This document shows, piece by piece, positions 10,384 to 61,968 of a stretch of DNA of 64,000 nucleotides. Positions within the stretch are counted from its first letter, which is position 1. The number at the start of each line of letters is the position of its first letter. The position numbers were made by a program, and so were the translations under genes. The notes under the pieces are model-generated. The model was given only the letters and a program-made list of their open reading frames with translations. It searched no databases and was not told the origin of the DNA. Source of the stretch: an uncultured Bdellovibrionales bacterium. Lineage in GTDB: Bacteria > Patescibacteriota > Minisyncoccia > Moranbacterales > UBA1568. The stretch is from positions 12,454 to 76,453 of the forward strand of contig CAZUWR010000002.1 in the NCBI GenBank assembly GCA_964624415.1. The letters are read 5' to 3'.

Positions 10384-10589
10384 AAAACCACTACGAGACG
10401 ACTACCAATTGATCAAGTCCAGGATGATGCGAACAATCCGAAGGATTGAATACAACATCCGCAAGAACTTTTTCATATTTAGTAGCCGCCTCGCTATACG
10501 AAAGCTTCGATTCAGCAATGAAGAAGTGATTCATAGTGTTTCCATTATAGCTAGGACTGGCTTATTATTATCTTTGTTGCTATTTAGAA

Positions 10590-10880: not shown

Positions 10881-11036
10881 CCGTTTTTGATGCGTGAATC
10901 ATTTGTTAAGCAACAGTCCTATTCACAATTATATACAAAACGTATAACTCCTGTCAAGCTTCCACTCCAGCAGAGACTTATTCAAAGTAGACAATATCTT
11001 CCCAATTAAGACTGTTCTTATGTGACAGGAAAATAT

Positions 11037-11200
11037 ATATCATCGAACCAAAACCAACCTATTTTTTATTAATTAACACATTCAGCCCCTGTGTAACACT
11101 CTCCATTTCCCCCATATTTTCCACCAAAAGAGTTCGAACTTCGTTGACTACCGAGCTCACATATCAAAAAAGTGACTATCTAAGTCTCTTTTTGTTAATT
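11037..11200 (+). repeat. Island repeat copy B, upstream of the DUF4238-like gene
   Basis: ATATCATCGAACCAAAACCAACC…TTAATTAACAC…CCCCTGTG…AGTTCGAACTTCGTTGACTACCGAG…CTCTTTTTGTTAATTTGCAG. Confidence 0.6.
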
Positions 11201-11342
11201 TGCAGAATTACACTGAAATCTAAACCTGAGTGCGGTTAGTACCGTTTCGATGTTATCTAGTCTAGAGCCAAACTAAATAAAAATGATTAACACTTTTTTA
11301 TAAAATACTACACTAAAATAATTCTTCGCCATCTTTAAACCT

Positions 11343-12527: not shown

Positions 12528-12941
12528 TTACTTCACCTTGATGGCGATTTTCTTGGGCTTGGCTTCTTCCGCTTTCGGCATCACGACCTTGAGAATGCCC
12601 TTCTCGTAGTGAGCCTCGGCCTGGTCGCCCTTGACGCGCATTGGGAGAATCACCGATCGGGCGAAAGAACCGGAGCGCATCTCCTTGCGGTAGTAGTCCT
12701 CGCGCTTCACCTCCTTGTTTTCCTCGACGTGCCCGCTGATGGTGAGGACATCATTTTCAATCGTGATGTCCACTTTCTCAGGATCGATACCCGCGACCGC
12801 CACCTCGGCGACCACATGATCATTGTCCTGATATACATCGATAGCGGGGGCGAATTCGCCACCAAAGCGACCCAGTCCGAAATCCTCGATAAGTCCCTCA
12901 AGATCTCTTGTGGTGCTCCATGGAATCATTCCTCGTGTCAT
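12528..12941 (-). CDS. hsp20: Small heat-shock protein, Hsp20/alpha-crystallin family
   Basis: Alpha-crystallin domain signature (…DVYQDNDHVVAEVAVAGIDPEKVDITIENDVLTISGH…AHYEKGILKVVMPK). GC content is noticeably higher than in flanking DNA. Confidence 0.85.
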   Translation of the reverse strand: MTRGMIPWSTTRDLEGLIEDFGLGRFGGEFAPAIDVYQDNDHVVAEVAVAGIDPEKVDITIENDVLTISGHVEENKEVKREDYYRKEMRSGSFARSVILPMRVKGDQAEAHYEKGILKVVMPKAEEAKPKKIAIKVK

Positions 12942-15813: not shown

Positions 15814-17049
15814 ATGAGTGAATACCCGAAGTTCGAAATCTTGTCAGAGAAGCCATCAGAAGAGACTGTGGTTGATCAAGAATCAGCCTCCTTAGAACGT
15901 GCTCAGGAAATCGCAGGTCAAGGAAACTATGAAGCTATTCACAAAGAACTCGAGGAACAGCATTTGCTTGAGCGATACACGCAGCACATGAAGGAATTAT
16001 ACTCAGGATACTTTGGGACGAAAGATTTTTCGTTAGAAGAAAGATCCTGGGAAATGCTCGCTATCTTGTATCTCTATGATGAACCGACGCTTCAGCACAG
16101 CCTGCGCACCTTTGATATCGCTCATGAAATGGTGACACAAAAACTATACGAACCGAAAAGTGGTGAGGAAGTACATCTTGGTGAGGCTATACAACAAGAA
16201 GGTGTAAATCTCGAACAATTCCTCAATGCCGCACTCTTTCACGATATCGGTAAAGTGACCGTCCCAAGAGAAATTTTGAATAATAGTCTCACAGGCTATG
16301 ATATGGGTTGTATCCTTATGCGGATGATGCGTGAGGGAAAATGTCAGGAATTATTCGATGAAATCGGCATTGAATACACACCTGGTACGGATGATGAAAA
16401 TGCTGCGCTGAAAAATCTGCACAAAAAAGGTTTCCGCTCCATTGAAATTGTTCCTCTTTCCGAAGTTTTTCCGGAAACCGAATATCCAAACTTACTACAG
16501 GATTTTGAATCGCGTGGCTTCTCGAAACAACAATCACTTAAAAGCGTCCTTGATACGCACGAAATGCAAAGCGCGGAAATTTTAAAAAACGATACGATTG
16601 TAGCAGAACTTGCAGGACACCACCACAATTACAAGGAAGAACCTTCAAAACTTACCCTTAGCATCGCCGCAATCCGAGCGAATATACAGATGACGGAAAT
16701 AGATGACCTGGATACAGAGATGACGGAAATAGATGACCCACAGACATATGACATTGCCATGATGCACCTCATCACCATTGCTGATATAACCGATGCATTA
16801 AGGGATACGACTCGTCCTTATAAGGGTGGTAAAAAATTCAGCGAACCGGAAATCTTTGTCAATCTCATACGAACCGTTGGGCAGGCAGAGTATGGCGAAG
16901 GATTCGTTCATTTATGGATCAGCAACAAATACCCCGCTTACAAGGAATCTCTTCAAAATAAGGAGGTACAACAAACAGAGCGAGATATTGAGTGTTGCGA
17001 AATCATCGAGTCTTTTCTTGAAAAACAGCAAGATCCCTCAAAAAAATAA
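15814..17049 (+). CDS. HD-domain phosphohydrolase
   Basis: HSLRTFDIAHEMV … ALFHDIGKVTVP … HHHNY metal-binding pattern. It contains an in-frame 27-bp tandem duplication at 16683-16736. Confidence 0.6.
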   Translation: MSEYPKFEILSEKPSEETVVDQESASLERAQEIAGQGNYEAIHKELEEQHLLERYTQHMKELYSGYFGTKDFSLEERSWEMLAILYLYDEPTLQHSLRTFDIAHEMVTQKLYEPKSGEEVHLGEAIQQEGVNLEQFLNAALFHDIGKVTVPREILNNSLTGYDMGCILMRMMREGKCQELFDEIGIEYTPGTDDENAALKNLHKKGFRSIEIVPLSEVFPETEYPNLLQDFESRGFSKQQSLKSVLDTHEMQSAEILKNDTIVAELAGHHHNYKEEPSKLTLSIAAIRANIQMTEIDDLDTEMTEIDDPQTYDIAMMHLITIADITDALRDTTRPYKGGKKFSEPEIFVNLIRTVGQAEYGEGFVHLWISNKYPAYKESLQNKEVQQTERDIECCEIIESFLEKQQDPSKK

Positions 17050-30656: not shown

Positions 30657-32210
30657 TTATGGTCTTTTTATTGTCAAAAATGTATTTTTGTGTTCTATTA
30701 TTAAACCGGCGCTTAAACCACAAACTATCCAAAAAAGCAATTGCCCTTGCTGTATATCCCACAAATAATGATCAGCAATCAAAATAGGAAGAAAACCGAT
30801 AAGCGCTGCGCGCGCATACACATTCAAATAGATTAGCTTCTGTAAAAAATTCTGAGCATCATTTAAAACGACAGTTGTTAACATAGTATGTTTTAGCTTA
30901 CTTCCGACAAGCGTTATGTACCACATCGTAAAAATGAAGAATCCAATAACTCCCAGTTCCGCCCAAATAAGCAAGAATACATTATGTACGGGCTGCAATT
31001 GCCAGTCATACAGTGGATAAATAGTCTGCTGCGCCATAAAAATAACCAGTTGTCCACAACTTATCCCCAAAATAGGGTGGTTGTGTATAACATCAAAAGC
31101 TACCTGTTGATAGAGTACTCGTTCTCTAAGCGATTGAAATAAAAGCGCGTCTTTATCCACTCTTACATAAAACTCTGTGCAAACAAACGCTCCTACAACA
31201 AGTATCGCCACACTAAAAACATGCTTAAAATTAAACTTCTTTAATCTTACTGTATTTTTTCTCATACCAGCATACTCATGCTTTGTTCCACGTGAAACAA
31301 TGACGATAAAACAAACGCTCAAGAGAAATCCTAGAATGGCTGATTTCGAAAAACTTACTCCCAATCCAATGATCTGTATAAGTAAGACTCCATAGTACAT
31401 CAACTTGCCTTGCTCCTGTTCCACGTGAAACATTTTGAAATACATATGGCTCAAAAGGATAGTGCAGCATAAAAAGCCTCCTAGTATATTGGGGTGTGGG
31501 AAGGTACCATAGGCGCGAATGTACTTATCGCCATCAAGAATGATTTTTGCAACCCCCAAAGACGATGGCTGGAGAATACTTTCACGTAAGAAAGTGAGTC
31601 CCAATGAATGCTGCAGCATGAATTGCCCTATACTAAGGGAAGATTCTAAAACACCTGCTAGTATAAAAATACCGAGCACCTTTCGAAAAATAACCTGCTT
31701 TTGAGCTAGCGCATATGTTCCATGTGGAACAATGTGAAACAGTGTAAAGAGGTACAGTCCGTACAATTCAATTAACTTACACACAAAGAAGATCCCTACC
31801 ACACTATCTCTTGCCCAGAGCAAAGAGGCGATTGACCATAGTATCAATACCACAGGAAATCCTACGAGGACACTCCTAGTGTTCCACGTGAAACATTTCC
31901 TTGCTATTGACATAAGTTTTAAATCGTGTCTTTCTTTTAAAAACCATGCTCCTAGAGCAAGCATAAGCATTATGTCAGACAGGTAGAGAGATATATCAGC
32001 ATACTCATTAAATGCTCCGTGCAGTGGTCTGTACCATAAAACCTTCCTTATAGACAAGGGAAGGGTGAAAAGAAAGCCGTAGAAGAGATATACGTCGATT
32101 TTTCCCTTCATATTTTTACCTATGTCTTTCACACTCTTTTCATTAAATGAGGCTTCATTGACTCTAGTATACAGAGTTTTGCTTTTTTTGGATATTTGAC
32201 GAATCTCCAA
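30657..32210 (-). CDS. O-antigen ligase/polymerase-family (Wzy_C-like) polytopic membrane protein
   Basis: 517 aa with more than 10 predicted TM helices. It is the longest frame in the region. Four copies of a 16-bp palindrome sit inside it (see the repeat feature at 31284-31905). Confidence 0.55.
   Translation of the reverse strand: MEIRQISKKSKTLYTRVNEASFNEKSVKDIGKNMKGKIDVYLFYGFLFTLPLSIRKVLWYRPLHGAFNEYADISLYLSDIMLMLALGAWFLKERHDLKLMSIARKCFTWNTRSVLVGFPVVLILWSIASLLWARDSVVGIFFVCKLIELYGLYLFTLFHIVPHGTYALAQKQVIFRKVLGIFILAGVLESSLSIGQFMLQHSLGLTFLRESILQPSSLGVAKIILDGDKYIRAYGTFPHPNILGGFLCCTILLSHMYFKMFHVEQEQGKLMYYGVLLIQIIGLGVSFSKSAILGFLLSVCFIVIVSRGTKHEYAGMRKNTVRLKKFNFKHVFSVAILVVGAFVCTEFYVRVDKDALLFQSLRERVLYQQVAFDVIHNHPILGISCGQLVIFMAQQTIYPLYDWQLQPVHNVFLLIWAELGVIGFFIFTMWYITLVGSKLKHTMLTTVVLNDAQNFLQKLIYLNVYARAALIGFLPILIADHYLWDIQQGQLLFWIVCGLSAGLIIEHKNTFLTIKRP
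31284..31905. repeat. Four intragenic copies of the 16-bp palindrome-like motif TGTTCCACGTGAAACA (31284-31299, 31417-31432, 31890-31905) and the variant TGTTCCATGTGGAACA-ATGTGAAACA (31716-31741)
   Basis: Exact 16-mer matches. The arms TGTTCCA/TGGAACA surround a CACGTG core. The copies fall in three different reading frames of the host ORF (CFTWNT, MFHVEQ, VSRGTK, FHIVPHGT). Confidence 0.7.
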
Positions 32211-36166: not shown

Positions 36167-36237
36167 CTAAAAACGACTTTTTATTATACAATAAGGATAT
36201 CTTTATAAGGTATCCTTATTTGTTTATCATTCTTCTT

Positions 36238-37323
36238 ATGTCGTTTTTTTCTCAAAAGACACCTTCTCAAAATAATCCTGGCGGACCTGCCTTGAAAGTA
36301 AGGACTATGCAGGATGATATCAATAATTTTTCCGATGCGCCAGCTGAAAAAACAGTTCCCGAAATGCCAGTCATACAAACACAAAAGACTGAGCCGCTTA
36401 AACCGGTTGAGAATATTCCTCAACACAATAATTCGCCATTTGCCAATACTCCGCCTCCATTAGCTGCATCAACATCCAAAGGACCCTTCACGCAAAACCC
36501 CTTCATAACAACACCTCAAACCCAAGATGGTCAGGTACAACAAACACCAACTAGCTTCCAAAAAGATCCGTTCATGCAGGCAAATGATTTCAATGCCAAT
36601 ATACATATAAGTGGCACCTCTTCAACCACATCGAAAGTGCTTTCTTTTTTGGTAACACTTATCATACTAGCCTCCATAGGCGGAGGAGGGTATTATTTCA
36701 TACACACAAGAAATATTGATGTATATTCCTTGCTAGGAAAAACGCCTATACAGGAAACTCCGAAATTACTCTTCTCTAGCGAAAAACCGAATTATCTTCC
36801 TCTAGATAGCTCTATTAGTACCCCTCAGGCATTTCAAACGCTTCTCGCCCAAACAGCGCAGCAAGTGACCAGCCTTAAGAGCACAAAACCTATCGAATTC
36901 TTCGTCACGGACGCCAATAATAAACCGCTTTCTTTTAGGGAATTTTCGAAACTTTCAGGCATACAACTTTCTTCGGCAACGCTTAACGCGCTTGGCGATA
37001 CCTTTTCCCTCTTTGTCTACACAGATGGTCAACGCACCAACATAGGACTTTCTATTACAATAAAAGATGTTACTGCGCTCAAAGAAAGTTTCAAACAAGA
37101 AGAACCTTCACTCATACAATCGCTTACGCCGCTTTTCCTCAACAATTCACCAACAGTAACAACAAAAACATTTAGCGATGGCTCTTACAAAAATATGCCC
37201 CTACGCTATCTCAATCTTCGCGAAGACACGTCGCTCTCTATCGACTATGCTATTACCACTACTCATCTTATTATCGGAACAAGTATGAAAACGCATCATG
37301 CATTACTTGATATTGTTCAATAG
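36238..37323 (+). CDS. Pro/Thr/Gln-rich membrane-anchored hypothetical protein
   Basis: Low-complexity N-terminal half, one TM helix (LSFLVTLIILASIGGGGYYFI), then a C-terminal domain. The track ORF begins at a TTG at 36220; the ATG at 36238 is the likelier start. Confidence 0.45.
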   Translation: MSFFSQKTPSQNNPGGPALKVRTMQDDINNFSDAPAEKTVPEMPVIQTQKTEPLKPVENIPQHNNSPFANTPPPLAASTSKGPFTQNPFITTPQTQDGQVQQTPTSFQKDPFMQANDFNANIHISGTSSTTSKVLSFLVTLIILASIGGGGYYFIHTRNIDVYSLLGKTPIQETPKLLFSSEKPNYLPLDSSISTPQAFQTLLAQTAQQVTSLKSTKPIEFFVTDANNKPLSFREFSKLSGIQLSSATLNALGDTFSLFVYTDGQRTNIGLSITIKDVTALKESFKQEEPSLIQSLTPLFLNNSPTVTTKTFSDGSYKNMPLRYLNLREDTSLSIDYAITTTHLIIGTSMKTHHALLDIVQ

Positions 37324-37354
37324 GGATAGTGTGTTAAGAAATACCAAAAATAAT

Positions 37355-37390
37355 TCTCTTGTAAAAGAGAATTATTTTTTTAAGGCTTAT
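37355..37390 (+). terminator. Strong Rho-independent terminator
   Basis: AAATAATTCTCTTGTAAAAGAGAATTATTTTTTT (perfect 13-bp stem). Confidence 0.75.
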
Positions 37391-37399
37391 ATACAGAAA

Positions 37400-38440
37400 A
37401 AGAAAGTGGCTTTTTTCAAAAACATGAAAATGGTAGTGTAGGAATATATTTTCTTCTTTGACACGCACGCTTCATAAGAGAGTTATTTACGCGATACAAT
37501 GAATTCTTGATTGACGTATGCATTTTTTTTTGCTATACTATAGATAAGAGTAAGTAAAGAACTTTGACAACTAAGGAACGGTGAGGGTATTTCCAATCAC
37601 AATTTCCCCCTATTTGTGATTGGAATTCTCTTACTGTTCAAATGATCTTATAACATAAGATCTCCCCTGACTGACCAGGGAAACATAAAACAAAAATAAA
37701 AAAATGCCCTAAGTCAGCTACCTGTGTAGTAACCTTTACGCGTTAGTATATAGATAACTGACTTAGAAGCATACCTTATAAAAAAATAAAAAATAAGGAA
37801 AAAACAAAAATAAAGAAAAAAACCAGTTCTTTTAAACAAAGGCCAAGTGCCAGAGAACGGTAAAGAGAAAAGATGTTAAAGTCAGAAAGACATCAAACAA
37901 AAAAGCATGCGCACAAATTACATGCGTAGAAAGCTTGATCATAGTATCTTAAGCTAACATATCTACTCACCCGTTGATATACCAGTAGGGATGCTATTAT
38001 CACACTACACATGTTGGCACATGCCGTCAGGCGATTCACACTGCCCAATATTATTTTATTTAAGGCGTGTCACTGAATCGCCTGACAACCAACTATTTGT
38101 CAGGTGTTGATACTTCCAAACGCTCCTTTATAAGGTGTTTTTTTATTCTCAAAATAAGCTTTTTTCCTTTATTGTGTTTACTCTACACACATTTATCATT
38201 TTCGCTTCTCAGTGTCTGATTGTGGATAAAGTGTGGATAAATGGTGAGTAACTCTTCAAAAAACGTGTTTATCCTTGTGGTTACTTTCTGAGTAAGTCGC
38301 TTTCCTTCGTTTACAAGTTATCCTCTTGTTTTCAACAAACACTATCTATCCACATATTTCACAAAGCACTTCTTTTTTATACACCAAACAGTTCTCCCAT
38401 TAATCATACGTAGGAAAGAAAAAACGAGCTATCCACCAAT
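37400..38440. promoter_or_regulatory. 1.1-kb gene-free AT-rich region with a cluster of DnaA boxes and multiple hairpins. Candidate oriC or DnaA-regulated control region.
   Basis: Perfect DnaA boxes (TGTGGATAA = reverse complement of TTATCCACA) at 38221-38229 and 38232-38240. 8/9 matches lie at 38346-38354 (CTATCCACA) and 38430-38438 (CTATCCACC), with weaker boxes at 38268-38276 and 38328-38336. There are long A/T tracts (37681-37700, 37781-37830). Inverted repeats: CCAATCACAA/TTGTGATTGG (about 37592-37627), CTAAGTCAG/CTGACTTAG (37712-37770), TCAGGCGATTCA/TGAATCGCCTGA (38028-38087). Confidence 0.5.
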
Positions 38441-38444
38441 TCGC

Positions 38445-38873
38445 ATGCCTAATAGTAACCATAAAGGAAAAAATATTTATAATGCTTCTATGCAGAGTTT
38501 AATTCGAAAGAAAGGAATCCTAGGAGAAACTATCGCTTGTACCTATCTTACCAAAAAGGGGTACGTGATAGTGGAAAGGAATTTCCAAAATACCAAGGGT
38601 TATAAATATGGTGAAATAGATATCATAGCGCGCTATGAAAATACGCTCGTTTTTGTTGAAGTAAAAACCCGTCTTACTCGAGAGGGGGAAACAATTCTTC
38701 CTGAAGAGAATATTTCTCCAAAAAAGTTAAAAAATATGGAGAAAATAGCCTCAACCTATATTCGAATGCAAAATATGCAAAATATCCCATACCGCTTCGA
38801 TGCCGTTTCCGTACTTTTCAATCCTCAGTCAAAAATAGCGAAAGTAAGACATTTAGAGCATATATTTTTCTAG
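38445..38873 (+). CDS. yraN: YraN-family (UPF0102) endonuclease-like protein
   Basis: GILGETIACTYLTKKGYVIVERNFQNTKGYKYGEIDIIARYENTLVFVEVKTR. Confidence 0.75.
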   Translation: MPNSNHKGKNIYNASMQSLIRKKGILGETIACTYLTKKGYVIVERNFQNTKGYKYGEIDIIARYENTLVFVEVKTRLTREGETILPEENISPKKLKNMEKIASTYIRMQNMQNIPYRFDAVSVLFNPQSKIAKVRHLEHIFF

Positions 38874-38920
38874 ACAAAGATCGGTATTTTGGTATACTGA
38901 AGTGTATAAGGTTGGGGAAA

Positions 38921-38929
38921 TGTGGATAA
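38921..38929. promoter_or_regulatory. Isolated perfect DnaA box (TGTGGATAA) upstream of the dksA/traR-like gene
   Basis: Exact 9-mer match. Confidence 0.4.
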
Positions 38930-42384: not shown

Positions 42385-42405
42385 TTATCCATTATTGTGG
42401 ATAAC
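42385..42405. promoter_or_regulatory. Pair of DnaA-box-like 9-mers (TTATCCATT and a perfect TGTGGATAA) upstream of rsmA
   Basis: Sequence match only. Confidence 0.35.
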
Positions 42406-42508
42406 ATTGTATAGATTGTGTATAACTTTATGCATACAGAAGAAACAAAAAAGTAGCGTTCATTGCTTTGATAGGGGTTTATCTGTATAGTAAAGATAAA
42501 CGATTTAT

Positions 42509-52311: not shown

Positions 52312-53607
52312 ATGGAAACATCCAATAATCAAGAATTACTTTTCGATCCACTTCTTGCGCCGATTCATCCGAACGGCACTCCTTTGACAGAGCAGGAAGC
52401 TATCGATATATGGCTGTATTTGAAGCAGGTTTCCGAGGAAACCTATCAACTACTCTCCTCTTCCCTTATAGATGAGGCTTTGCATCGCATGCAGCAAACG
52501 CTTGGGTTTACGGACGAGGTGATGATAAGGATGGCATCGCTTTTGCGGATGATGTATTTTGGTAAGATTACTTTTGAACAATTCCCGGAGTTATTGCAGA
52601 AGGAAGTGGGTATTCCTCAGGATAAGGTTGCCGTGACAGTGAATTTCATACAGGCAGAAGTACTGTCACTTAAAGCGATACCGAAACAGCCTGAGGTGGC
52701 GGAGGATGTTGTCCAAACACAAATGCAAACCACCGCAATAATGCTGCTTGATGCTCTGGCAAAATACCCTCGTATCAACGACCAACAGATTACCACTGAT
52801 CGCATCAAAATACGTAGCGAGAGAGAATCCGTGCGCGGGACGGTACGCAATTGGCTCAGGGCTTATCGTGATAGTGTCGGTGTGCGCCAGCATAGTGCTA
52901 TCGAACGCGGGCAATTCCTGTTCCAATCTGAGAATGCCAAAGGTCTCTCCGCTCAAGAACGCGAGAAGGTGGCTGCGCTCTTGAAATCGCTTGATGATCG
53001 CGAGGCGCTCGCTATCGATGTTCAAAGACAGGAGATAGTGTTTCCAGTATTCATACCATCGCAAACTACCACTGCGCCGCCATCAGCACTGGCGCAACCA
53101 CCAGCATTCGTCGCCGATTCATTTGTAACTGAACAGAAACCGGAGTTTGTACCTGAAATGCAACCGGTAATCGCGCCGCAAAATAACGGACAAGTAGCAG
53201 GTTCTTTTCCTCAGGCGCCGCAACCGACGACATTCAATTTTTCACAAGCCCTGCCTGATCCCCTCCATCCTTCCGTATTAAATCCTCAAACGCTTCAATC
53301 AACACCTCCGGTATCGACTGAGAAATACAATCTTACTCCTGAAGCATCAAGTCCTCTCATACCACTGAATCCGGCTGATGAGAAAGCGTTTCATTTTTCG
53401 TCGGGACACATCTTGCCAGCAGAGAAGCAATCTCCTGAAAACCCGGTCATTCCATCAAAAACACCTTCGCCGCCGTCATCATTCGGGTTAGGATATAATC
53501 CCGGTACGCCGTTTCGCTCATCGCCACAAATAACTGGTCAGAAAAAAGAAGTTTGGGAGATTCCTTCCGGATTACAGAATGTGGTGGATCTGCGAGCAAA
53601 GGAATAA
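52312..53607 (+). CDS. Hypothetical protein with a Pro/Gln-rich C-terminal half
   Basis: No TM helix or recognised domain. Confidence 0.4.
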   Translation: METSNNQELLFDPLLAPIHPNGTPLTEQEAIDIWLYLKQVSEETYQLLSSSLIDEALHRMQQTLGFTDEVMIRMASLLRMMYFGKITFEQFPELLQKEVGIPQDKVAVTVNFIQAEVLSLKAIPKQPEVAEDVVQTQMQTTAIMLLDALAKYPRINDQQITTDRIKIRSERESVRGTVRNWLRAYRDSVGVRQHSAIERGQFLFQSENAKGLSAQEREKVAALLKSLDDREALAIDVQRQEIVFPVFIPSQTTTAPPSALAQPPAFVADSFVTEQKPEFVPEMQPVIAPQNNGQVAGSFPQAPQPTTFNFSQALPDPLHPSVLNPQTLQSTPPVSTEKYNLTPEASSPLIPLNPADEKAFHFSSGHILPAEKQSPENPVIPSKTPSPPSSFGLGYNPGTPFRSSPQITGQKKEVWEIPSGLQNVVDLRAKE

Positions 53608-53647
53608 AGGTATGGTATACTAAGAAGGTAAAAATCTATATTGTTGT

Positions 53648-54046
53648 ATGTTATTCAATGTTCCACAGTACATCGATGTCGAAGATAAAGTGGCAGGACC
53701 GCTGACCGCTAAGCAGTTACTGTGGATGATCGGTATGGGGGCCGCACTGATGTTTTTGTGGAGCATGCTCAATACGGGCGCTTTTTTTGCTGCAGCAATC
53801 CCGGTAGTGTGCGCATTCGTGGCCCTCGCTTTTTACCGGCCTTATAATCAACCCTTAGCTATGTTCATAGCCAATGCATTACTCTTTATGATCCGGCCGA
53901 AAATTTATGTCTGGGAGCGTCCTACCAAGAGGACGCCTCAGCGAAAGGAAAAAAATCCTGTGATGGGAGAGATAGTTGTCAATAAACAAGTAACGGTCGA
54001 AGAAGTGAACCGGCTCGCAAAAATAGTCGATAGTCAGAGACATTGA
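53648..54046 (+). CDS. VirB3/PrgI-like small two-TM protein
   Basis: 132 aa, two adjacent TM helices. It sits immediately upstream of the VirB4 ORFs, as in Gram-positive-type T4SS. Confidence 0.45.
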   Translation: MLFNVPQYIDVEDKVAGPLTAKQLLWMIGMGAALMFLWSMLNTGAFFAAAIPVVCAFVALAFYRPYNQPLAMFIANALLFMIRPKIYVWERPTKRTPQRKEKNPVMGEIVVNKQVTVEEVNRLAKIVDSQRH

Positions 54047-54056
54047 ACAGTTTTTT

Positions 54057-54737
54057 ATGGAAAATTCTCAACAAAAAAAGAAATCGGCTAGCACGCAGCA
54101 ATACGTCGATGTGCGCGAGGTACGAGATGGCGTGATTGTGCTTAAGAACGGCGCACTCCGAGCTATTTTATTGGTGTCTTCTTTGAATTTCGATCTGAAG
54201 TCAACTGAAGAGCAAGACGCTATTATTTCGCAGTATCAAAGCTTTCTAAATTCCTTGGACTTTCCGGTGCAGGTGCTTATTCATTCGAGAAGGTTTAATA
54301 TAGAGCCCTATCTTCAATTACTCAAGGAAAAAGAAGAGGAACAGACGAATGAATTGTTGCGCCTCCAGATTTCAGAGTATCAGCATTTTATTAAAAATCT
54401 GACGGAAGTATCCGATATCATGTCGAAATACTTTTATGTCATCGTACCTTTTGCTTCTATTGAAGATAAGCAAAGTGGTTTGCTTGAAAAATTGAGCAAT
54501 ATGATAAATCCGAAAGAGGCTATTCATGAGCGACGCGAACTTTTTGAAACATACAAAAATCAGCTATGGCAAAGGGTTGATCATGTGAGTATCGGCCTTT
54601 CGGGTACAGGAGTAAAGGTAGCGGCGCTCAATACGGAAGAAATCATAGAACTTCTCTATAATACCTATAATCCATCACTGTTCTCGACGACCCTGACAAA
54701 AAATATCAAGGATATCGAACTGAATACGGCGATTTGA
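54057..54737 (+). CDS. VirB4/TraC N-terminal-domain protein (first piece of a split VirB4)
   Basis: YVDVREVRDGVIVLKNGALRAILLVSSLNFDLKSTEEQDAIISQYQSFLNSL resembles the CagE/TrbE/VirB N-domain. It ends 10 nt before the ATPase ORF, in a different frame. Confidence 0.45.
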   Translation: MENSQQKKKSASTQQYVDVREVRDGVIVLKNGALRAILLVSSLNFDLKSTEEQDAIISQYQSFLNSLDFPVQVLIHSRRFNIEPYLQLLKEKEEEQTNELLRLQISEYQHFIKNLTEVSDIMSKYFYVIVPFASIEDKQSGLLEKLSNMINPKEAIHERRELFETYKNQLWQRVDHVSIGLSGTGVKVAALNTEEIIELLYNTYNPSLFSTTLTKNIKDIELNTAI

Positions 54738-54747
54738 TGAGCAATAG

Positions 54748-56595
54748 GTGAATATATACAATAAAAAGCATCGTATGGCATTTTTTTCCAAAAAACAAGA
54801 ACAACAGGATGAATTCCTGGCGAGCGAAGAACTCTATCAAAGAGGTGTTGCGACGATACGCGACCTTATCGCGCCTTCAGCTATCAAATTGAGCTCCAAC
54901 TTCATGCAGATAGGAGAGACGATGGCTCGGACGCATTTCGTGGTAGCTTACCCGCGATACCTCAATACGAACTGGTTTTCACCGATTGTGAATCTGGACT
55001 TTCCTCTCGATATTTCGATGATGATTCACCCTATCGATACGCGGGAAATCTTAAAAAACCTCCGAAAATCGGTAACGCAAGTGCAGTCTCAGATTCATAT
55101 TGAGGAGGAAGGCGGCAAGGTACGTGATCCGATTCTCGAGACAGCTCTCAAAGATATCGAAGAATTGCGCGACAAACTTCAGCAGGGAACGGAGAAGTTT
55201 TTCCGGTTTGGTTTGTATATCACGCTGTATGCGCAGTCGTTGGAGGATTTGAACCGCATGAGTCAGGCAGTTGAGGCGATTTTGGAATCACAACTGGTCT
55301 ATATTAAGCCGGCAGTATTGCGTATGGAGCAGGGGTTTACTTCGACGCGACCCTTGATGAACGATGTGCTCGATATTGCAAACAACCTCAATACAGCACC
55401 ATTATCCACCACTTTTCCATTCGTTTCGGCGGATCTCTCATCGAATGAGGGAATATTGTATGGCATCAATCGTCACAACAATAGCTTGATTCTGTTTGAT
55501 CGTTTCAAATTGGAAAATGCCAATATGGTGGTATTCGCCAAATCCGGTGCCGGAAAAAGCTATACCGTCAAACTCGAAGTGCTCCGTTCGATGATGCTCG
55601 GTTCGAGCGTGATCATTATCGATCCTGAAAACGAATACCGCCACCTGTGTGAGATGGTGGGCGGATCCTTTATTGATATCAAGCTGGGCACGAATTTCCA
55701 TCTCAATCCTTTTGATCTACCGCGTGTCGGCGAGGACGAAGATCTTACAGCGGTGCTGCGCAATACTATCGCCGGGCTTATCGGGTTGATTCATTTGATG
55801 CTTGGCAATCTCACACCGGAAGAAGATTCGATTCTCGACCGTGCTCTTCGGGAAACCTACGCTATTCGTGACATTACTCCTACGGGGCGTTTCCGCGACA
55901 TACCATCCAACGCTTTTCCGACCATGCTCGATTTGTATGAAGTCTTGAAAAATATGGAGGGTGCAGAATCTTTGGCTGCGCGTCTCGAGAAATACACCGA
56001 GGGCATCTTTTCGGGATTTTTGAGTAATCATACTAACGTATCCTTGCGCGAGCAGTTAGTCGTATTTAATATCCGCGATTTGGAAGAAGAATTGCGTCCT
56101 ATCGCGATGTATATTATCTTGCAATTCATTTGGAATGAGATGCGATCAGAGCTTAAAAAACGGATTGTGGTGGTGGATGAGGCGTGGGTGATGATGCAGC
56201 ACGAAGACGCGGCTTCATTTCTGTATGGCATAGCCAAGCGTTGCCGAAAGTACTATACGGGATTGACGACTATCACTCAAGACATCGGGGATTTTATGCA
56301 TTCGCGCTATGGCAAGCCTATTTTGACAAACTCTTCGCTCCAGCTCCTGCTGAGGCAATCACCAGCATCTATTGAATTGGTTGCGGAGACATTTTTCCTT
56401 ACTGACCACGAAAAATTCCTGCTTTTGGAAAGCAATGTGGGCGAGGGGATTTTCTTTGCCGGTACCAAACATGTCGCTATCAAGGTTATTGCCTCCTATA
56501 GTGAGGACCAGATTATCACCTCTGATCCGCGACAACTCTTGGAAATCGAGCAAGCGAAACAGGATTTCGAACAAGAAAATAAGGAGAATGTTTAA
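54748..56595 (+). CDS. virB4: VirB4-family T4SS ATPase (C-terminal ATPase piece)
   Basis: Walker A VVFAKSGAGKSYTVK, Walker B IVVVDEAWVMM, and TraC/VirB4-like flanking motifs. Confidence 0.8.
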   Translation: MNIYNKKHRMAFFSKKQEQQDEFLASEELYQRGVATIRDLIAPSAIKLSSNFMQIGETMARTHFVVAYPRYLNTNWFSPIVNLDFPLDISMMIHPIDTREILKNLRKSVTQVQSQIHIEEEGGKVRDPILETALKDIEELRDKLQQGTEKFFRFGLYITLYAQSLEDLNRMSQAVEAILESQLVYIKPAVLRMEQGFTSTRPLMNDVLDIANNLNTAPLSTTFPFVSADLSSNEGILYGINRHNNSLILFDRFKLENANMVVFAKSGAGKSYTVKLEVLRSMMLGSSVIIIDPENEYRHLCEMVGGSFIDIKLGTNFHLNPFDLPRVGEDEDLTAVLRNTIAGLIGLIHLMLGNLTPEEDSILDRALRETYAIRDITPTGRFRDIPSNAFPTMLDLYEVLKNMEGAESLAARLEKYTEGIFSGFLSNHTNVSLREQLVVFNIRDLEEELRPIAMYIILQFIWNEMRSELKKRIVVVDEAWVMMQHEDAASFLYGIAKRCRKYYTGLTTITQDIGDFMHSRYGKPILTNSSLQLLLRQSPASIELVAETFFLTDHEKFLLLESNVGEGIFFAGTKHVAIKVIASYSEDQIITSDPRQLLEIEQAKQDFEQENKENV

Positions 56596-56606
56596 GCGCT
56601 CCCTGT

Positions 56607-57251
56607 ATGAATATATCGCACAAGCAAAAACAATTTTGGATGAGCAATGTCGTCATTGTGATAAGCCTATTAGGAGCTGTCTTATTTCCTGCCGCTGATG
56701 CTATTCAGTCGATTATTATAAGTATAGCTTTTCTCATCGTCCTTCCTTTGCTATTCACATATTTATTTTTGAAAGAAAGACTCCCTTTTCTCGGTCTTTC
56801 TTGGGGAAATGTGACGCAGGGTAGCTTGTGGTTAGCGACATTTCTGTCTCTTGAGGTGTTTTCGTTAATCGGATTGATTCGTTATACGGACGCATTGAGC
56901 CGCTTCGATATGCCGCTCGCTGTTCGTTTGAGTTTCCCGTTGTTTATACTCTTTATTGTGGTTGTCGGTATATATGTATTCATGGCTGAATTTTTTTTCC
57001 GAGGATTCGTATTTTCCGTATGGCAAAAAAATATCGGTACCAAGGCTTTGTTCGCCCAAACTACCGTGTATCTCATTTTTTTGGTAGCGTTGTCTCACTG
57101 GAAAATAGGCGCATCTTTTCTTGTTGTTGGTATCATGGCTCTTCTTTCAGGATTTCTCGTTATCCGTTCCCGATCGATAGTGTATTCATTTTTATTTTCA
57201 TATATCTCTGTTATACTAGGGATAGTGAGTATTATTTTTTTCGTAAAATAA
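56607..57251 (+). CDS. Polytopic membrane protein, possibly a CPBP-family intramembrane protease
   Basis: Six or more TM helices, EFFFRG (EExxxR-like) and LSH (FxxxH-like) motifs. Weak call. Confidence 0.3.
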   Translation: MNISHKQKQFWMSNVVIVISLLGAVLFPAADAIQSIIISIAFLIVLPLLFTYLFLKERLPFLGLSWGNVTQGSLWLATFLSLEVFSLIGLIRYTDALSRFDMPLAVRLSFPLFILFIVVVGIYVFMAEFFFRGFVFSVWQKNIGTKALFAQTTVYLIFLVALSHWKIGASFLVVGIMALLSGFLVIRSRSIVYSFLFSYISVILGIVSIIFFVK

Positions 57252-57285
57252 ATTAGAAAAAGCCGGAGTAAAAGATACATCGTTT

Positions 57286-59922
57286 ATGAAACATGGTATC
57301 GTACCAAAAACAAAAATGGCACACAAATTAGTTGTTGTAAGTTTAATTATCTCGCAGCTCGTTTTCGCTTTTTCGATACCGAAGAATGCATATGCCGAAG
57401 TCTTCCCTTGGGATCTGGTAGCTGAGACCGCTTCTATAAATGCTGGCACAAGTGCCGCAAATACTGCAGCAGCAGCCACGGTATCTGCAGCTATTGTGAC
57501 CGCGCTTGGCTTAGGAGCTTCAGTTTTAAGCAGCTCCAATATGAATGGTGTCATGAGTGATGTGGAAAAACGATACCACATCAACACGAGCTCCGTGCAG
57601 AATCTGGGCGAGACAATGAACACTTCTTCCAATAAGGAAACCGTTCCGCAGACGAATGTTTTTTTTAATCCGACCGATCCGAAAAACGGTAAGGAGATAA
57701 CCGCACAAGCCTTTCCTATGTATTTTTCAAGTCCGAAGGAGACGCTTTATTTCACTTGGTATCTTAAGCGGAAAAATTGCGATTTGAAAAATGATAATCT
57801 GAGCGAGGAAGAAAAGGCTTGCGACCTCGATGGGAGCGGGTCCATCACTGTCAATGACTGGAAAGTAGCGGCGATGCGCAGGATTGCGACTGGAGGTTTT
57901 TCATACGATCAAGCGAATTACAGTGTCGCCAGCAACGACAATGACGAGTATAAGGCGCAATTCGGCGGTGATAAAAGCAAGAGCGGGTATTGTTTTGTGC
58001 ATAATTTCGATACAGGAATTGATTACGGTTTAGTCGATGGCGGTGACAACAACGGATGTAAACACCTGTTCCCGAAAACTCCGGGACATACGACCGGAGA
58101 CGGGTCGTCATTCGATGCTGATGCCGAGCGTTTTTGGCAGACTGATCCGCAAGATCCAAGTACGGCGCAAAATGGTAATAAGGATGAAGCAAATGTAGTT
58201 GGACTCGGACAGGATAAATTTACTTGGAGCTATGCTACCGGGGATCAAGTAGGGGTTGTGATTGAAGGACTATCTATGGTTCCGACCAAGTTCCCCGATG
58301 CTTCCATGCAGGTGATGTGGGCCTTCTCCAGAAACAAATGCACTCCTATACCGACAGGAAGATCCGTACCTGGAGCAGCTTACAATGGAGGTGCTTCACA
58401 AATTCCCACGGCGAATATGGATGTGAACGATTGTTTGAAAGATAACCTCATTGATCCGACACAAGGTGATCAAGCCGGAAAATTGGATATTCAGCTTACG
58501 AGCTCCCCGGAGAATCCGGTCATGCATTTCTTTTCGGACAGCAAACCTGATAGGCAAGGTAGTGTCGTGACGGCCCAGTCAGTCCTTTCGAATTCCGTTA
58601 CCCAAAGTTCTCGGGTATCCTATGAATGGCGCGTGTACGCTAATACCAATAAATCACAGACAGATGATACTGCCTGGGAGGATGTGACGCAAGGATTGAT
58701 TGATATGCATAATCTTTCCAATGTGAAAGGGAATGATTTAGCTGCTCTTAAAATCAATCTCAATATTGATGAAAAAACCCAAGTGAGCGGAGAGACAGTA
58801 TCAAAAAGATACTTTAAAGATGGTGTGGGTTACTTGCGTGTCAATCTGACAGCAACAGAAAATTTTGAAGCAGGCAAAAAGCGTGTAGGGAGGGCCTCAA
58901 CTATCATTAAAATGACTGAGGATCAAGCTCGTATACAGACCCATGCAGTCAACGTCGACACTTCAAATTGGAAGCTTCGGTTTGTAAATCCTAGTTTGAC
59001 GGATAATGGCCTGTTATGTGAGGATAACGCTTCTGATCGAACTATTTGCCCGGTCGTAAAGGGGCAGATTATCGGGGTGAATTTCAATCCAGATAAACTT
59101 GGATTACAGCCCAATAACGGAGCTGATATTTCCTGGACAATCAACAACCAACTCTTTCATTGTAGCAGCGCTATTTCACAGGATGGGGATTGCGCCAATG
59201 GAACGGAGAATTTTTTCCCAGTGACGGGCGATATAGGCGAGACATATAATGTGACAATGACCGCCAATAATCCGGTAACAGGAAAATCGATTACGCTCAA
59301 TCGCATGTTTTCTGTTGTTGAACCATCGCTTTTGATAGTATCGGCTGATAGTGCCAAGGTGTGGCCAAAATACCTGGGGCAGTATGTGGATGCCAGTGGA
59401 AAGACCACGGATAACTACAGTCAGGATGTGTTTGAAGCATTCGCTGGAGGGGCGTTTTCCTTAAAGGGTCTTTTTTATCCTAACGCGCTTAAAAACAGCG
59501 CCAGCGTGTCGTGGCTTCTCAATGGTGTGGCTGCAGCGCCTGATAGTGCCGGACTACTCGCTATCGACGCGGCAGCCGCTCCGGGATCAGTTTACACGGT
59601 TTCTTTGAATGGTTTATACTCCCCATCGCAGAATAGTATCAAAGCGATATCGACGATCTGGGGCATTTCAGTGGTCGGTGCCGTGGAAACGAAGCTTTCC
59701 CGTGATATCCAAGTTGAAATTATGCCAAGTGCTGATGGAATCGCTCGAGGACCGATGAGTGGTCCCAAGAAGTTTTTCGCGAGCATTATTTCGTATATTC
59801 CGACATCGATCATTTTCTTCTTCCGTTTGATCGTGACTATGGGAATGATTTTACTGACGCTTGGAGTGATATTTTCCCTTGTTCCTGAGCAAAGAAAATC
59901 CGGTCAAAATTTGAATTATTAA
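57286..59922 (+). CDS. Large (878 aa) secreted surface protein with a C-terminal membrane anchor
   Basis: Signal peptide, a long Asn/Asp/Thr-rich extracellular region, and a C-terminal TM (IISYIPTSIIFFFRLIVTMGMILLTLGVIF). Confidence 0.55.
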   Translation: MKHGIVPKTKMAHKLVVVSLIISQLVFAFSIPKNAYAEVFPWDLVAETASINAGTSAANTAAAATVSAAIVTALGLGASVLSSSNMNGVMSDVEKRYHINTSSVQNLGETMNTSSNKETVPQTNVFFNPTDPKNGKEITAQAFPMYFSSPKETLYFTWYLKRKNCDLKNDNLSEEEKACDLDGSGSITVNDWKVAAMRRIATGGFSYDQANYSVASNDNDEYKAQFGGDKSKSGYCFVHNFDTGIDYGLVDGGDNNGCKHLFPKTPGHTTGDGSSFDADAERFWQTDPQDPSTAQNGNKDEANVVGLGQDKFTWSYATGDQVGVVIEGLSMVPTKFPDASMQVMWAFSRNKCTPIPTGRSVPGAAYNGGASQIPTANMDVNDCLKDNLIDPTQGDQAGKLDIQLTSSPENPVMHFFSDSKPDRQGSVVTAQSVLSNSVTQSSRVSYEWRVYANTNKSQTDDTAWEDVTQGLIDMHNLSNVKGNDLAALKINLNIDEKTQVSGETVSKRYFKDGVGYLRVNLTATENFEAGKKRVGRASTIIKMTEDQARIQTHAVNVDTSNWKLRFVNPSLTDNGLLCEDNASDRTICPVVKGQIIGVNFNPDKLGLQPNNGADISWTINNQLFHCSSAISQDGDCANGTENFFPVTGDIGETYNVTMTANNPVTGKSITLNRMFSVVEPSLLIVSADSAKVWPKYLGQYVDASGKTTDNYSQDVFEAFAGGAFSLKGLFYPNALKNSASVSWLLNGVAAAPDSAGLLAIDAAAAPGSVYTVSLNGLYSPSQNSIKAISTIWGISVVGAVETKLSRDIQVEIMPSADGIARGPMSGPKKFFASIISYIPTSIIFFFRLIVTMGMILLTLGVIFSLVPEQRKSGQNLNY

Positions 59923-59932
59923 CAGTGTCCGT

Positions 59933-60790
59933 ATGAAACTTTCTCGATTCCATACTCTTTCATTGGCCATACTTCTCTGTATGGGCGTGTTTGTGTTTAT
60001 CGGAAGCCCGGTTGCAAAGGCGGTCACAGCTCCGCAGTATACCCAATTGGAGAATATTCCGGGAGCTGAAGGGAAAAACAAGTCATTTCCCGAATACGTG
60101 ACATCCATATATAATCTCGGACTATGGTTGGTGGGTATTTCGGCTATGTTTATGCTCTCGGTCGGGGGGTTTATGTATTTGACAAGCGCTGGCAATACAT
60201 CGGCTGCCGGATCTGCCAAAGGTGTAATCAAGGATGCTCTTATCGGCCTTGTGCTCGGGCTTTTTGCATGGCTTATCCTCAATACCATCAATCCAGACCT
60301 CACGACATTGAATGTGAGCGGACTGCAAACAGGCACATCGGTAACGCCGATTCCCGGAGGGCAGGCACCATCAATACCTTCTGTAGGAGCTAGCGGACAG
60401 TATACAAACAGTGAAGCAGTAGCAGTATTGCAGTCTGCGGGAATTTCTGTAACCAGTAGCGGTAATTGCAGCGATCAGAACAATGCAAACTGTACCAGTT
60501 TGGAAGGAATACCAAAAGATGCGATTAATAAAATTATCAAACTGAAACAGAGTTGCGGATGTTCTTTCAATGTGACAGGAGGTACGGAAGTAGGTCATGC
60601 CAGCCATGGCCCAGGACTGCCCGTAATGGATGTTTCTCAAGACCAGACACTCGGTAATTACCTTAATAATAGATCGAACTTATCATCTGCAGGCATAAGT
60701 AAAATATGTGCTACATCGACATGGCAGAGAGTCTCATATAATTGCGGCGGGTATGTTGAGCAAAAACAACATTTCCATCTCGCATTTTGA
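59933..60790 (+). CDS. Pilin-like protein (VirB2/TrbC-like hydrophobic core) with a Cys-rich C-terminal extension
   Basis: Signal peptide, then two TM helices (LGLWLVGISAMFMLSVGGFMYL … LIGLVLGLFAWLILNTI) in the VirB2-pilin arrangement. Confidence 0.4.
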   Translation: MKLSRFHTLSLAILLCMGVFVFIGSPVAKAVTAPQYTQLENIPGAEGKNKSFPEYVTSIYNLGLWLVGISAMFMLSVGGFMYLTSAGNTSAAGSAKGVIKDALIGLVLGLFAWLILNTINPDLTTLNVSGLQTGTSVTPIPGGQAPSIPSVGASGQYTNSEAVAVLQSAGISVTSSGNCSDQNNANCTSLEGIPKDAINKIIKLKQSCGCSFNVTGGTEVGHASHGPGLPVMDVSQDQTLGNYLNNRSNLSSAGISKICATSTWQRVSYNCGGYVEQKQHFHLAF

Positions 60791-60828
60791 TTGGTGAAGA
60801 ATAGAGGTGGTTTTTATCGGCGTATTCT

Positions 60829-61968
60829 ATGAAAAAGGTATTCTTCATTTCCGCCGTCGTATTGGGTATCACGCTGCTTTTGGCAGGAGTGTACAATTTT
60901 GCGTTCCGCAACAATGTCAATAACCCATTGGCAAATGACACCGCGACCATCGAAGTGAAGAACCCGTCAATAACAGTGCCTGAAATAAAGGAAAATCCTA
61001 TCAAAGCATTGACTGATGAAAAGGCTATGAGTCCTTCGTATGATGCGCAGAGCAATAGTGTCCGGTATTTTTCTTCTCAGAAACGCGAAATAAAGAATGT
61101 TTCTCTGGATACGCAAGATGTGACCACGGTCATGCCTCTTTCTGGAGAGCCGTCTCATGCTGCGTGGTCGCCTCGCAAAAACCAAGCTTTAGCGGAGCTT
61201 AAAACAGGACAAGAAACGCGATGGTATCTTATCGATACGGATACAAAGACGGAGATACCACTGAAAAACGGTATCGAAACACCCATATGGACACAGTTGG
61301 GAGATCGCATTGTATATAAATACTATGATACCAAAACAAAAGCGCGAACCTTAAATACCGCTAATCCTGACGGGAGCGATTGGAAGGAGATTGGAGAAAG
61401 TCCTTTTAAGAATATGAGTGCTACGGTCATGCCACAGGGAGGACTGTTTGTTTTCTGGAATCAAGGTAATGCTTTCGAGGAAACATCTTTGCGTAGTGTG
61501 GCACTTGTCGGCGGTGATGTGAAAACGATGTTTTCCGGAAAATTTGGCGCTGATTATGCGTTTTCTCCTGACGGACAAAAGATACTGATGAGCTCGACCA
61601 ATAAAAAAGGTGGTACGCTGCCGATGCTGGGATTACTGCTGAATCAAGGTGCTCAGTATCAAAATCTTTTGATCCCGACACTGGTCACTAAAACCGTGTG
61701 GGCAAAGAATGGGAAGTTAGTATACTATGCTCTTCCCGGGGCGCTCCCTGAGAATGCGATTATCCCCAATGACTATTTTTCCCAGGCTATTCTAACGCAG
61801 GACACGTTTTGGAAGGTGAACCTCGAGACAGGAGAAAAAAACCGTATCGTGGAAACGAAAGACATAACTACCAGCTACGACGCCTCATCTATGATACTTA
61901 GCGATGATGAGACTATGCTTATCTTTATAAATCGTGTAGACGGAAAGCTCTACAGTATCCGTCTCTAA
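60829..61968 (+). CDS. Membrane-anchored TolB-like (PD40/WD40-like) beta-propeller protein
   Basis: N-terminal anchor and repeated …SP(D/R)G… blades (AWSPRKNQ, FSPDGQKILMSS, etc.). Confidence 0.6.
   Translation: MKKVFFISAVVLGITLLLAGVYNFAFRNNVNNPLANDTATIEVKNPSITVPEIKENPIKALTDEKAMSPSYDAQSNSVRYFSSQKREIKNVSLDTQDVTTVMPLSGEPSHAAWSPRKNQALAELKTGQETRWYLIDTDTKTEIPLKNGIETPIWTQLGDRIVYKYYDTKTKARTLNTANPDGSDWKEIGESPFKNMSATVMPQGGLFVFWNQGNAFEETSLRSVALVGGDVKTMFSGKFGADYAFSPDGQKILMSSTNKKGGTLPMLGLLLNQGAQYQNLLIPTLVTKTVWAKNGKLVYYALPGALPENAIIPNDYFSQAILTQDTFWKVNLETGEKNRIVETKDITTSYDASSMILSDDETMLIFINRVDGKLYSIRL

Follow-up and report, generated by a model that had tools for sequence, protein, structure and literature searches.

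A 1.1-kb intergenic region in a Moranbacteria-type genome probably combines a structured RNA gene with a chromosomal replication origin

Does the longest protein-free gap in a fragment of a Moranbacteria-type genome hold the origin of chromosome replication and, if so, how much of the gap does the origin take up? The gap lies in a stretch of 64,000 nt (hereafter, the window) from contig CAZUWR010000002.1 of assembly GCA_964624415.1 (positions 12,454 to 76,453), deposited under the name of an uncultured Bdellovibrionales bacterium and placed by GTDB in the Moranbacterales of the Patescibacteriota. An original prediction had described it as the only long non-coding stretch, gene-free over 1.1 kb, and had proposed the whole as a candidate replication origin. 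It is indeed the longest protein-free gap of the window (37324-38444, 1121 nt; the next longest gap between open reading frames, ORFs, is 709 nt), but some 600 nt of it are occupied by an RNA gene. Its right edge probably extends to 38489, given that the yraN gene on that side starts at ATG 38490 in relatives and in the gene annotation of L001, an identical Logan contig (position 2986 of L001), with the longest yraN ORF beginning at 38445. An exact look-up of the 142-aa yraN ORF returned no match, as is to be expected if the true start is, as seems probable, at 38490. We consider it likely that the gap is a composite, made up of a transcription terminator of the preceding gene, hyp367 (37346-37379), a gene for a structured RNA (37511-38147) and a chromosomal replication origin (38144-38489). 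The proposal of an origin is thus well supported for the right-hand ~300-340 nt and fails for 37511-38147, where an unrecognised non-coding RNA gene, which had been listed as an alternative, turned out to be the correct description. The origin is an ordinary kind of element, unlinked from dnaA and with a layout like that of Escherichia coli; the RNA is the less expected result.

The gap was aligned with its syntenic counterparts in two relatives, L002 (GCA_028711705.1) and L004 (ERZ25039515 contig_26151), in which the hyp367 counterpart is only 43% and 32% identical, respectively; further related loci are denoted in the same way. The elements assigned to the putative origin, from left to right, are:

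38144-38220, no strand assigned: candidate DNA-unwinding element, AT-rich and T-rich on the plus strand, between the T-tract of the RNA gene and the tandem boxes, placed here by its position
38221-38240, minus strand: two perfect DnaA boxes in tandem, TTATCCACA, separated by 2 bp and in an 11-nt register
38276-38284, minus strand: 7/9 DnaA box, reading TGTGGTTAC on the plus strand, third member of the left array and aligned with a conserved block in L002
38318-38437, plus strand: right-hand array of opposite orientation, with boxes at 38318 (TTATCCTCT), 38329 (TTTTCAACA), 38346 (CTATCCACA), 38377 (TTATACACC) and 38429 (CTATCCACC)

Perfect DnaA boxes, TTATCCACA on the minus strand or TGTGGATAA on the plus strand, were found at 38221-38229, 38232-38240, 38921-38929 and 42396-42404. 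These are the only four in the 64 kb, all of them on the minus strand, against an expectation of 0.61, and none of 100 shuffled sequences reached four. The tandem pair at 38221 and 38232, 2 bp apart, is therefore present as predicted; so are the additional perfect boxes, except that the one placed at 42397 starts at 42396, and the claim of at least four 7-8/9 boxes in the next 200 bp is exceeded, with six lying within 210 bp besides the tandem pair. When up to two mismatches are allowed, nine boxes fall within 38143-38437, a count given for 311 nt, as compared to 1.3 +/- 1.1 in shuffled sequences (0 of 2000 shuffles). A scan of box density, which had been suggested as a check and was run here over the 64 kb, assigned the top weighted box score of the whole window to the 300 nt starting at 38101 (14, versus a mean of 1.6 with a standard deviation of 1.6). 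The boxes form two opposed arrays, in which the three on the left (38221, 38232 and 38276) read TGTGGATAA on the plus strand and the five on the right read TTATCCACA, and this diverging layout recurs in the clusters of L043, L061, L029 and L060. Region 38150-38444 can be aligned with L002 only, and is missing in L004. The L002 gap contains seven one-mismatch boxes, including the tandem pair, which is kept as TGTTGATAA and TGTGTATAA in an unchanged 11-nt register, and within the aligned cluster the columns belonging to boxes are 83% identical, versus 35% for the rest (Fisher p = 8e-12).

The box cluster coincides with a switch in strand composition. The cumulative G-C curve of the window, a second suggested check, falls over 38 kb, reaches its minimum at 38460, at the box cluster, and rises over the remaining 26 kb. 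Plus-strand skew at third codon positions is negative to the left of the switch (-0.10 for plus-strand genes, -0.17 for minus-strand genes) and positive to its right (+0.18 and +0.20, respectively); hence, because the flip affects genes of both strands, the switch is not an effect of gene orientation. L002 has its own skew minimum at 12315, beside its box cluster, and every dense downstream box cluster among 65 related loci lies within ~0-425 nt of a local skew minimum (14 loci, including the window). The position of the cluster varies among these genomes: it may come right after the RNA gene (the window and L002), after lspA (e.g. L043, L053, L060, L061), or, in L031 and L047, 4.3-4.7 kb downstream. 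Where a box pair is present only upstream of the RNA gene, skew is monotonic. The RNA gene was rejected as a constant origin marker, the skew sign switching across it in only 11 of 36 loci. A replication terminus was also considered and rejected, because the switch runs from C>G to G>C, the polarity expected at an origin, 19 of the 23 genes to the right are co-oriented on the plus strand, as the original prediction had noted in less exact terms, and no dif-like site was found. On account of the box density, the box-specific conservation, the orientation-independent skew switch and the recurrence of cluster plus skew minimum in relatives, the right ~300-340 nt of the gap (38144-38489) very probably constitute the replication origin of this chromosome. 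For the Candidate Phyla Radiation (CPR), origins are usually placed from skew or from the location of dnaA alone, and our literature searches found no dissection of a Moranbacteria origin; this locus would provide a sequence-defined oriC unlinked from dnaA. Its placement, which shifts within one conserved gene neighborhood from behind the RNA gene to behind lspA or to several kb further on, bears on metagenome-based estimates of replication rate and on checks of genome completeness.

In the proposed mechanism, DnaA would bind the two perfect tandem boxes (38221, 38232) and then spread across the weaker ones; the resulting oligomer would open the adjoining T-rich, low-stability segment 38144-38220, and forks would depart both ways, which would account for the plus strand's observed excess of G over C to the right and of C over G to the left. 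We infer DnaA binding, the unwinding site, the act of initiation and any connection between the RNA and replication from the anatomy of the locus. In E. coli, oriC has an unwinding element beside box R1 and opposed left and right DnaA-box arrays, and is unlinked from dnaA; its 13-mers lie 5' of R1, just as 38144-38220 lies relative to the TGTGGATAA boxes. The present locus resembles that arrangement in that the TGTGGATAA boxes face a T-rich segment of low stability on their 5' side, a second, opposite array follows ~100-200 bp away, the whole spans ~300 bp, and the site sits at the cumulative skew minimum and not adjacent to dnaA. It differs in having two perfect tandem boxes with a 2-bp spacer instead of the single R1, in lacking recognizable GATC/13-mer repeats or IHF and Fis sites, and in its flanks, which are a structured RNA gene and yraN here and gidA/mioC in E. 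coli. Unwinding is expected 5' of the TGTGGATAA boxes by analogy with R1 and the 13-mers of E. coli and with the box 6/7-trio arrangement of Bacillus subtilis, and the 50-mer 38126-38175 ranks at about the least stable 1% of the window (-54.6, versus a 99th percentile of -54.5). By that analogy, 38144-38220 is a more likely unwinding site than the A/T tracts within the RNA gene.

Origins of the B. subtilis type contain the basal unwinding system (BUS), where tandem DnaA boxes are followed by a short GC spacer and then by DnaA-trios (PMC8287927, PMC6669920), and whose core is recognized by three or more NAN trios no further than 16 bp from a DnaA box, on the correct side (PMC8287927). The tandem, same-orientation pair 2 bp apart is a hallmark of the BUS platform, and its geometry recurs across the clade, but the trio run expected on one side of the pair is absent here. 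Runs of NAN trios do adjoin 38346, 38377 and 38429, although no more than by chance (43% in shuffled sequence). A BUS-type origin is therefore unsupported, given the missing trio run at the tandem pair and a chance rate (43%) that renders trio scoring uninformative in AT-rich DNA.

The larger part of the gap is taken up by the RNA gene, for which the following elements were identified, all on the plus strand:

37511-37539, plus strand: sigma-70-type promoter, TTGACG, 17 nt and TG-n-TATACT, with an extended -10 element and 10/12 consensus matches
37546-38147, plus strand: structured non-coding RNA gene of ~600 nt, ending in a short hairpin (38122-38136) and a T7 run (38137-38143)
37559-37571, plus strand: boxA-like element GAACTTTGACAAC near the RNA 5' end, a conserved block G-N4-TT-N3-A in the alignment of homologs
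37576-37639, plus strand: helix P1, ~20-24 bp, with an invariant C-rich loop at ~37603-37613 (AUUUCCCCCUA)
37681-37707, plus strand: A-rich single-stranded linker AAAACAAAAAYAAAAA, with 0.74 mean identity over 59 genomes
37773-37825, plus strand: second A-rich linker, which aligns with L002 and in part with L004; the nearest DnaA box is 400 bp away
37905-38085, plus strand: 3' domain of the RNA, with a long-range helix (37905-37926 paired to 38008-38024) and a hairpin (38027-38085)

Region 37505-38147 is far better conserved than the neighboring proteins, with 36 nt at helix P1 identical in the window, L002 and L004. In 59 genomes, homology begins at the promoter and continues up to the T-tract, and the promoter is kept as TTGAC...TGCTATA(A/C)T across 61 homologous upstream regions. 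In helix P1, double compensatory changes were detected at 10 of 20 pairs; 97.9% of cells are paired, as compared to 35-50% with slid partners, and double changes occur in 145 cells versus 7-31 for slid partners, and the score of the helix was reached by none of 500 shuffles. RNAalifold analysis of 64 homologs yielded double changes at 16 of the 17 pairs of the long-range helix and at 10 of 11 pairs of the 11-bp hairpin, and both helices of the 3' domain recur in the single-sequence minimum free energy (MFE) fold. The MFE amounts to -181 kcal/mol on the plus strand (z = -11.4), the antisense strand scoring z = -7.1, and the strand of the RNA is fixed as plus because a G.U pair is kept in 57 of 62 sequences. 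In all, at least five helices with covariation support are joined by A-rich linkers, and 37511-38147 is thus a predicted gene in its own right, from promoter to terminator, for a structured RNA. No complementary site for the C-rich loop was found in the window besides the RNA gene itself. The boxA-like GAACTTTGACAAC on a non-ribosomal RNA suggests possible antitermination in the style of ribosomal RNA (rRNA). As in the boxA of rRNA leaders, which acts with NusB/NusE, the GAACtTTgAcAAc block is located 13-25 nt past the predicted start of a long, untranslated and structured transcript with a near-consensus promoter, but no rRNA follows here, and the likeness is only to the consensus sequences UGCUCUUUAACAA of E. 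coli and GUUCUUUGAAAAC of Firmicutes.

Each of 65 species-level genomes contains a single exact copy of a 21-mer from the main hairpin. Nearly all of these genomes are labelled Moranbacteria/Moraniibacteriota or Patescibacteria, and the RNA measures 450-600 nt across homologs. It keeps its identity where the origin lies elsewhere, as in L004 and in L050, whose complete genome of 1.29 Mb carries it at 466 kb. A search with 4227 Rfam models, including those for RNase P, tmRNA, signal recognition particle (SRP) and 6S RNAs, OLE, GOLLD, ROOL, raiA and riboswitches, gave no match in the gap at the gathering threshold, only chance-level matches at E <= 10 on 1.8 kb, none in 17 homologous loci and nothing relevant at E <= 1 on the L004 homolog. 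ARAGORN reported no tRNA or tmRNA in the gap. The original prediction had named a known non-coding RNA model covering most of the region as evidence that would count against an origin; the Rfam search found no such model, and it is an uncatalogued RNA that covers somewhat more than half of the region. The predicted RNA is accordingly a single-copy, clade-wide feature of Moranbacteria-type Patescibacteria, in no Rfam family, and no account of such an RNA came up in searches of the literature. It resembles OLE, GOLLD, ROOL, HEARO and raiA in its size (450-600 nt), several covarying helices, confinement to one lineage, single copy and conserved neighborhood, but does not match the Rfam models for those RNAs even at permissive thresholds, and is set apart from them by its invariant C-rich loop AAUUUCCCCCUAUUU, A-rich linkers and boxA-like 5' element, as well as by the DnaA boxes that lie beside its gene in about three quarters of genomes. 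Large structured RNAs of 450-600 nt are rare and have often proved to have unusual biochemistry, and the RNA may matter more than the origin. Its gene would also account for a long "intergenic" gap that is currently blank in annotations of these genomes.

A separate observation concerns metagenome-assembled genomes (MAGs) that bear the hairpin under other labels, namely Bdellovibrionales, Micavibrio, Pacearchaeota archaeon, Bathyarchaeia archaeon and Saccharibacteria (L008, L010, L022, L031-L033, L035, L039, L040, L048, L053, L056, L057, L065, L069, L070). Most of them share the synteny of pnp, membrane-protein gene, RNA and yraN, and they are probably mislabelled or contaminated bins.

The division of the gap into RNA gene and origin has to be weighed against other accounts. 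It is unlikely, in our judgement, that the box cluster is a DnaA-regulated promoter region of yraN-dksA-lspA or a site titrating DnaA, the skew switch marking a rearrangement or inversion breakpoint and oriC lying elsewhere, e.g. beside dnaA. Such an account can draw on the TATAAT just ahead of yraN and the boxes at the dksA-like promoter, on breaks of synteny at the equivalent clusters of other genomes, on other conserved box groups outside the site (31012-31161, 38921, 42396), on the tandem pair by itself being clearly no origin in many relatives, and on the lack of dnaA or dnaN nearby, which the original prediction had rightly noted. Several observations weigh against the composite reading as well. 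Pfam scans of essentially all ORFs of at least 100 aa found no dnaA or dnaN in the window, nor any other of the indicator genes that usually, if not obligatorily, accompany an origin (dnaA, dnaN, rpmH, gidA, parAB). Of the genes to the left, only about half lie on the minus strand, and the leftward fork would meet transcription of rpsO, pnp and the RNA gene head-on. The skew evidence covers 64 kb here and 8-21 kb in relatives and is thus local; the global minimum may lie elsewhere. The RNA gene contains tracts of higher AT content than the candidate unwinding segment, as well as segments of the gap that are less stable, and no run of at least three NAN trios occurs within 16 nt, on the expected side, of 38221, 38232 or 38276. 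Finally, the clues to a function of the RNA are those of its anatomy. What tells against a promoter or titration site combined with a breakpoint is that the switch has an origin-like sign (C>G to G>C) and is seen at third codon positions on both gene strands, that clusters and skew minima coincide in 14 loci and three contexts, which independent breakpoints would not yield, and that the site is the densest cluster of the window, with opposed arrays and an adjoining low-stability segment. As to the original proposal that the whole 1.1 kb is origin DNA, with the A/T tracts of 37681-37830 as unwinding element and the inverted repeats as structural elements of the DNA, we find it very improbable. 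The tracts at 37681-37700 and 37781-37830 do exist, the gap's least stable 50-mer is 37771-37820 (dG -50.3 kcal/mol per 50 nt), and inverted repeats of 8-12 bp are plentiful. The tracts, however, are conserved A-rich linkers of the RNA and lie at a distance of 400-540 bp from the boxes. The repeats show covariation as helices of an RNA, with strand-specific G.U pairs among them; a promoter and a terminator, both conserved, bracket the unit; and tracts and repeats are both kept in many loci, such as L004 and L050, where the local skew minimum and box cluster are 2 to more than 8 kb away or absent.

Two further accounts accept the RNA but assign it to a familiar class. A long cis-regulatory leader of the yraN-dksA-lspA operon, either a riboswitch or an attenuator, appears improbable: in most genomes yraN does come directly after the terminator-like hairpin and is co-oriented with the RNA, but in the window and L002 a ~300-nt box cluster parts the two, L024, L038 and L049 have yraN at a distance of 1.6-4.5 kb, and the next genes are on the opposite strand in L031 and L047. 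In addition, no riboswitch family matches, and 450-600 nt with a boxA-like element would be atypical for a leader. A highly diverged housekeeping RNA (RNase P RNA, tmRNA, SRP or 6S) missed by Rfam models is scarcely credible, despite the single-copy, clade-wide occurrence of the RNA and the precedent of CPR RNase P RNAs, which are known to escape Rfam thresholds and are reported to fall below them in 10 of 35 complete CPR genomes (PMC8172020). Allowing for up to one substitution, the P4 strands GAGGAAAGUCC / ACAGAAnnCGGCUUA of RNase P RNA are absent from all 63 homologs (P4 strand GAGGAAAGTCC, 0 of 63; CR-V strand, 1 of 63). The RNA presents neither a tRNA-like 3' end nor an SRP motif, the pairing of its 5' and 3' ends equals that of shuffled sequence (-11.34 vs -11.32 kcal/mol), RF00010 and the other models are absent even at E <= 10 (1.8 kb) and E <= 1 (L004 homolog), and 6S and SRP RNAs do not fit in size and architecture. 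A diverged RNase P RNA, tmRNA or SRP RNA was hence rejected, signature motifs and end pairing being absent.

Besides the cluster assigned to the origin, DnaA boxes accompany the RNA gene on its upstream side. At 160-340 nt from the hairpin, at least one box is present in 45 of 62 genomes and the tandem pair TGTGGATAAcTTGTGGATAA in 26 (42%); 80 of these 87 boxes share one orientation, and the background is 0.07 per 180 nt. These boxes belong to loci L004-L070 and are absent from the window and L002. They are located ~155 nt before the RNA promoter, where the stop codon of the membrane-protein gene precedes them and an AT-rich palindrome, AAAGTAAtTTACTTT, probably the terminator of that gene, follows. 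The upstream pair is not an origin by itself, because it is present even where local skew is monotonic; in the lineage of the window, the tandem pair is found ~75 nt past the RNA terminator, as part of the putative origin. A tentative proposal, which we consider doubtful, is that the ~600-nt RNA, rather than simply adjoining the origin, represents a new class of large structured RNAs with a functional tie to DnaA or to the control of replication. The RNA could be regulated by DnaA, or could modulate initiation, for instance via transcription into or beside the unwinding region, or it could sequester a factor through its invariant C-rich loop or its A-rich linkers. In L004, the local skew minimum (~3063) is situated 8 kb from the RNA gene and lacks canonical DnaA boxes. 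It is flanked by repeated ATTCGTA/TACGAAT heptamers (2830-2870 and 3520-3610), which could point to an origin that uses a divergent box, or be unrelated. No relative's locus (8-kb relatives) gave a match to the DnaA domain-IV signature.

To the right of the gap, DnaA boxes form two conserved groups at intergenic positions:

38901-38929, minus strand: auxiliary DnaA boxes upstream of the dksA-like gene, of which the 7/9 one at 38901 was identified by eye and the one at 38921 is perfect
42396-42425, minus strand: auxiliary DnaA-box pair, one perfect and one 8/9 box 21 nt apart, between the G5-domain gene and ksgA

The perfect box at 38921 is ~23 nt downstream of a promoter-like site (38871-38898) in the region between yraN and the dksA-like gene, and L002 has a box pair at the syntenic site (12677 and 12686; 12677-12694). 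For the second group, the syntenic L002 pair (16144 and 16165, region 16133-16173) maintains the same 21-nt spacing. Both groups may mark DnaA-regulated promoters. A third group, at 31012-31161, comprises five one-mismatch boxes in 150 bp, the second-densest box window of the 64 kb, inside a minus-strand ORF resembling Wzy_C/O-antigen ligase (30657-32210). Its L002 counterpart presents identical box spacing (38, 11 and 21 nt), and the block is the best-conserved DNA of the ORF (77% over 177 nt), most of which cannot be aligned at the DNA level. It could be a gene-embedded, datA-like site of DnaA binding, or mere coding conservation. Conserved box groups away from the skew switch, i.e. those upstream of the RNA promoter, the intragenic 31012-31161 and the pairs at 38921 and 42396, are reminiscent of E. 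coli datA and DARS1/2 and of the DnaA-box clusters of B. subtilis; unlike datA and DARS, they have no IHF site here, and one cluster falls inside coding sequence.

Two remaining features mark the edges of the gap:

37346-37379, plus strand: intrinsic terminator of hyp367, a perfect 15-bp inverted repeat with a 4-nt loop (100% complementary) followed by a T run, kept in L002
38478-38492, plus strand: TATAAT hexamer (38478-38483), read from the sequence directly ahead of the probable yraN ATG at 38490, a candidate promoter

The TATAAT hexamer begins 41 nt past the DnaA box at 38429 and, with yraN starting at 38490, the yraN mRNA would be leaderless or nearly so. The genes flanking the gap are ordinary housekeeping genes. 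On the left are rpsO, an NYN-domain gene, pnp and hyp367 (36220-37323), and on the right yraN, a dksA-like gene, lspA, comM/yifB, a G5-domain gene, ksgA, a UbiA-family gene and pcrA. The closest homologs of hyp367 come from Candidatus Moranbacteria and Parcubacteria MAGs, and identical copies are present on an NCBI contig of 142 kb and on a Logan contig; a role as replication factor was rejected for this single-pass membrane protein, which belongs to no family. The original prediction had the upstream genes mostly on the plus strand as well, but a count gives about 50/50.

Further from the gap, a low-GC patch (4928-12350) contains a reverse-transcriptase gene (RVT_1, 9096-10067), an adjacent helix-turn-helix (HTH) gene (10027-10383), a gene for a 1259-aa protein without family (4928-8707) and a DUF4238 gene (11343-12350), and is possibly a retron, defense or mobile island. 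At the other end of the window, 52312-61968 is a cluster resembling type IV secretion or competence loci, with a PrgI-family gene and genes for a TraG/VirB4-like ATPase, a type IV secretion system (T4SS) pilin, an Rce1-like membrane protease and a protein of 878 aa. Genomes whose box cluster follows lspA have a gene pair like one in 52312-61968, encoding a ~210-aa membrane protein and a ~1000-aa secreted protein, directly to the right of that cluster.

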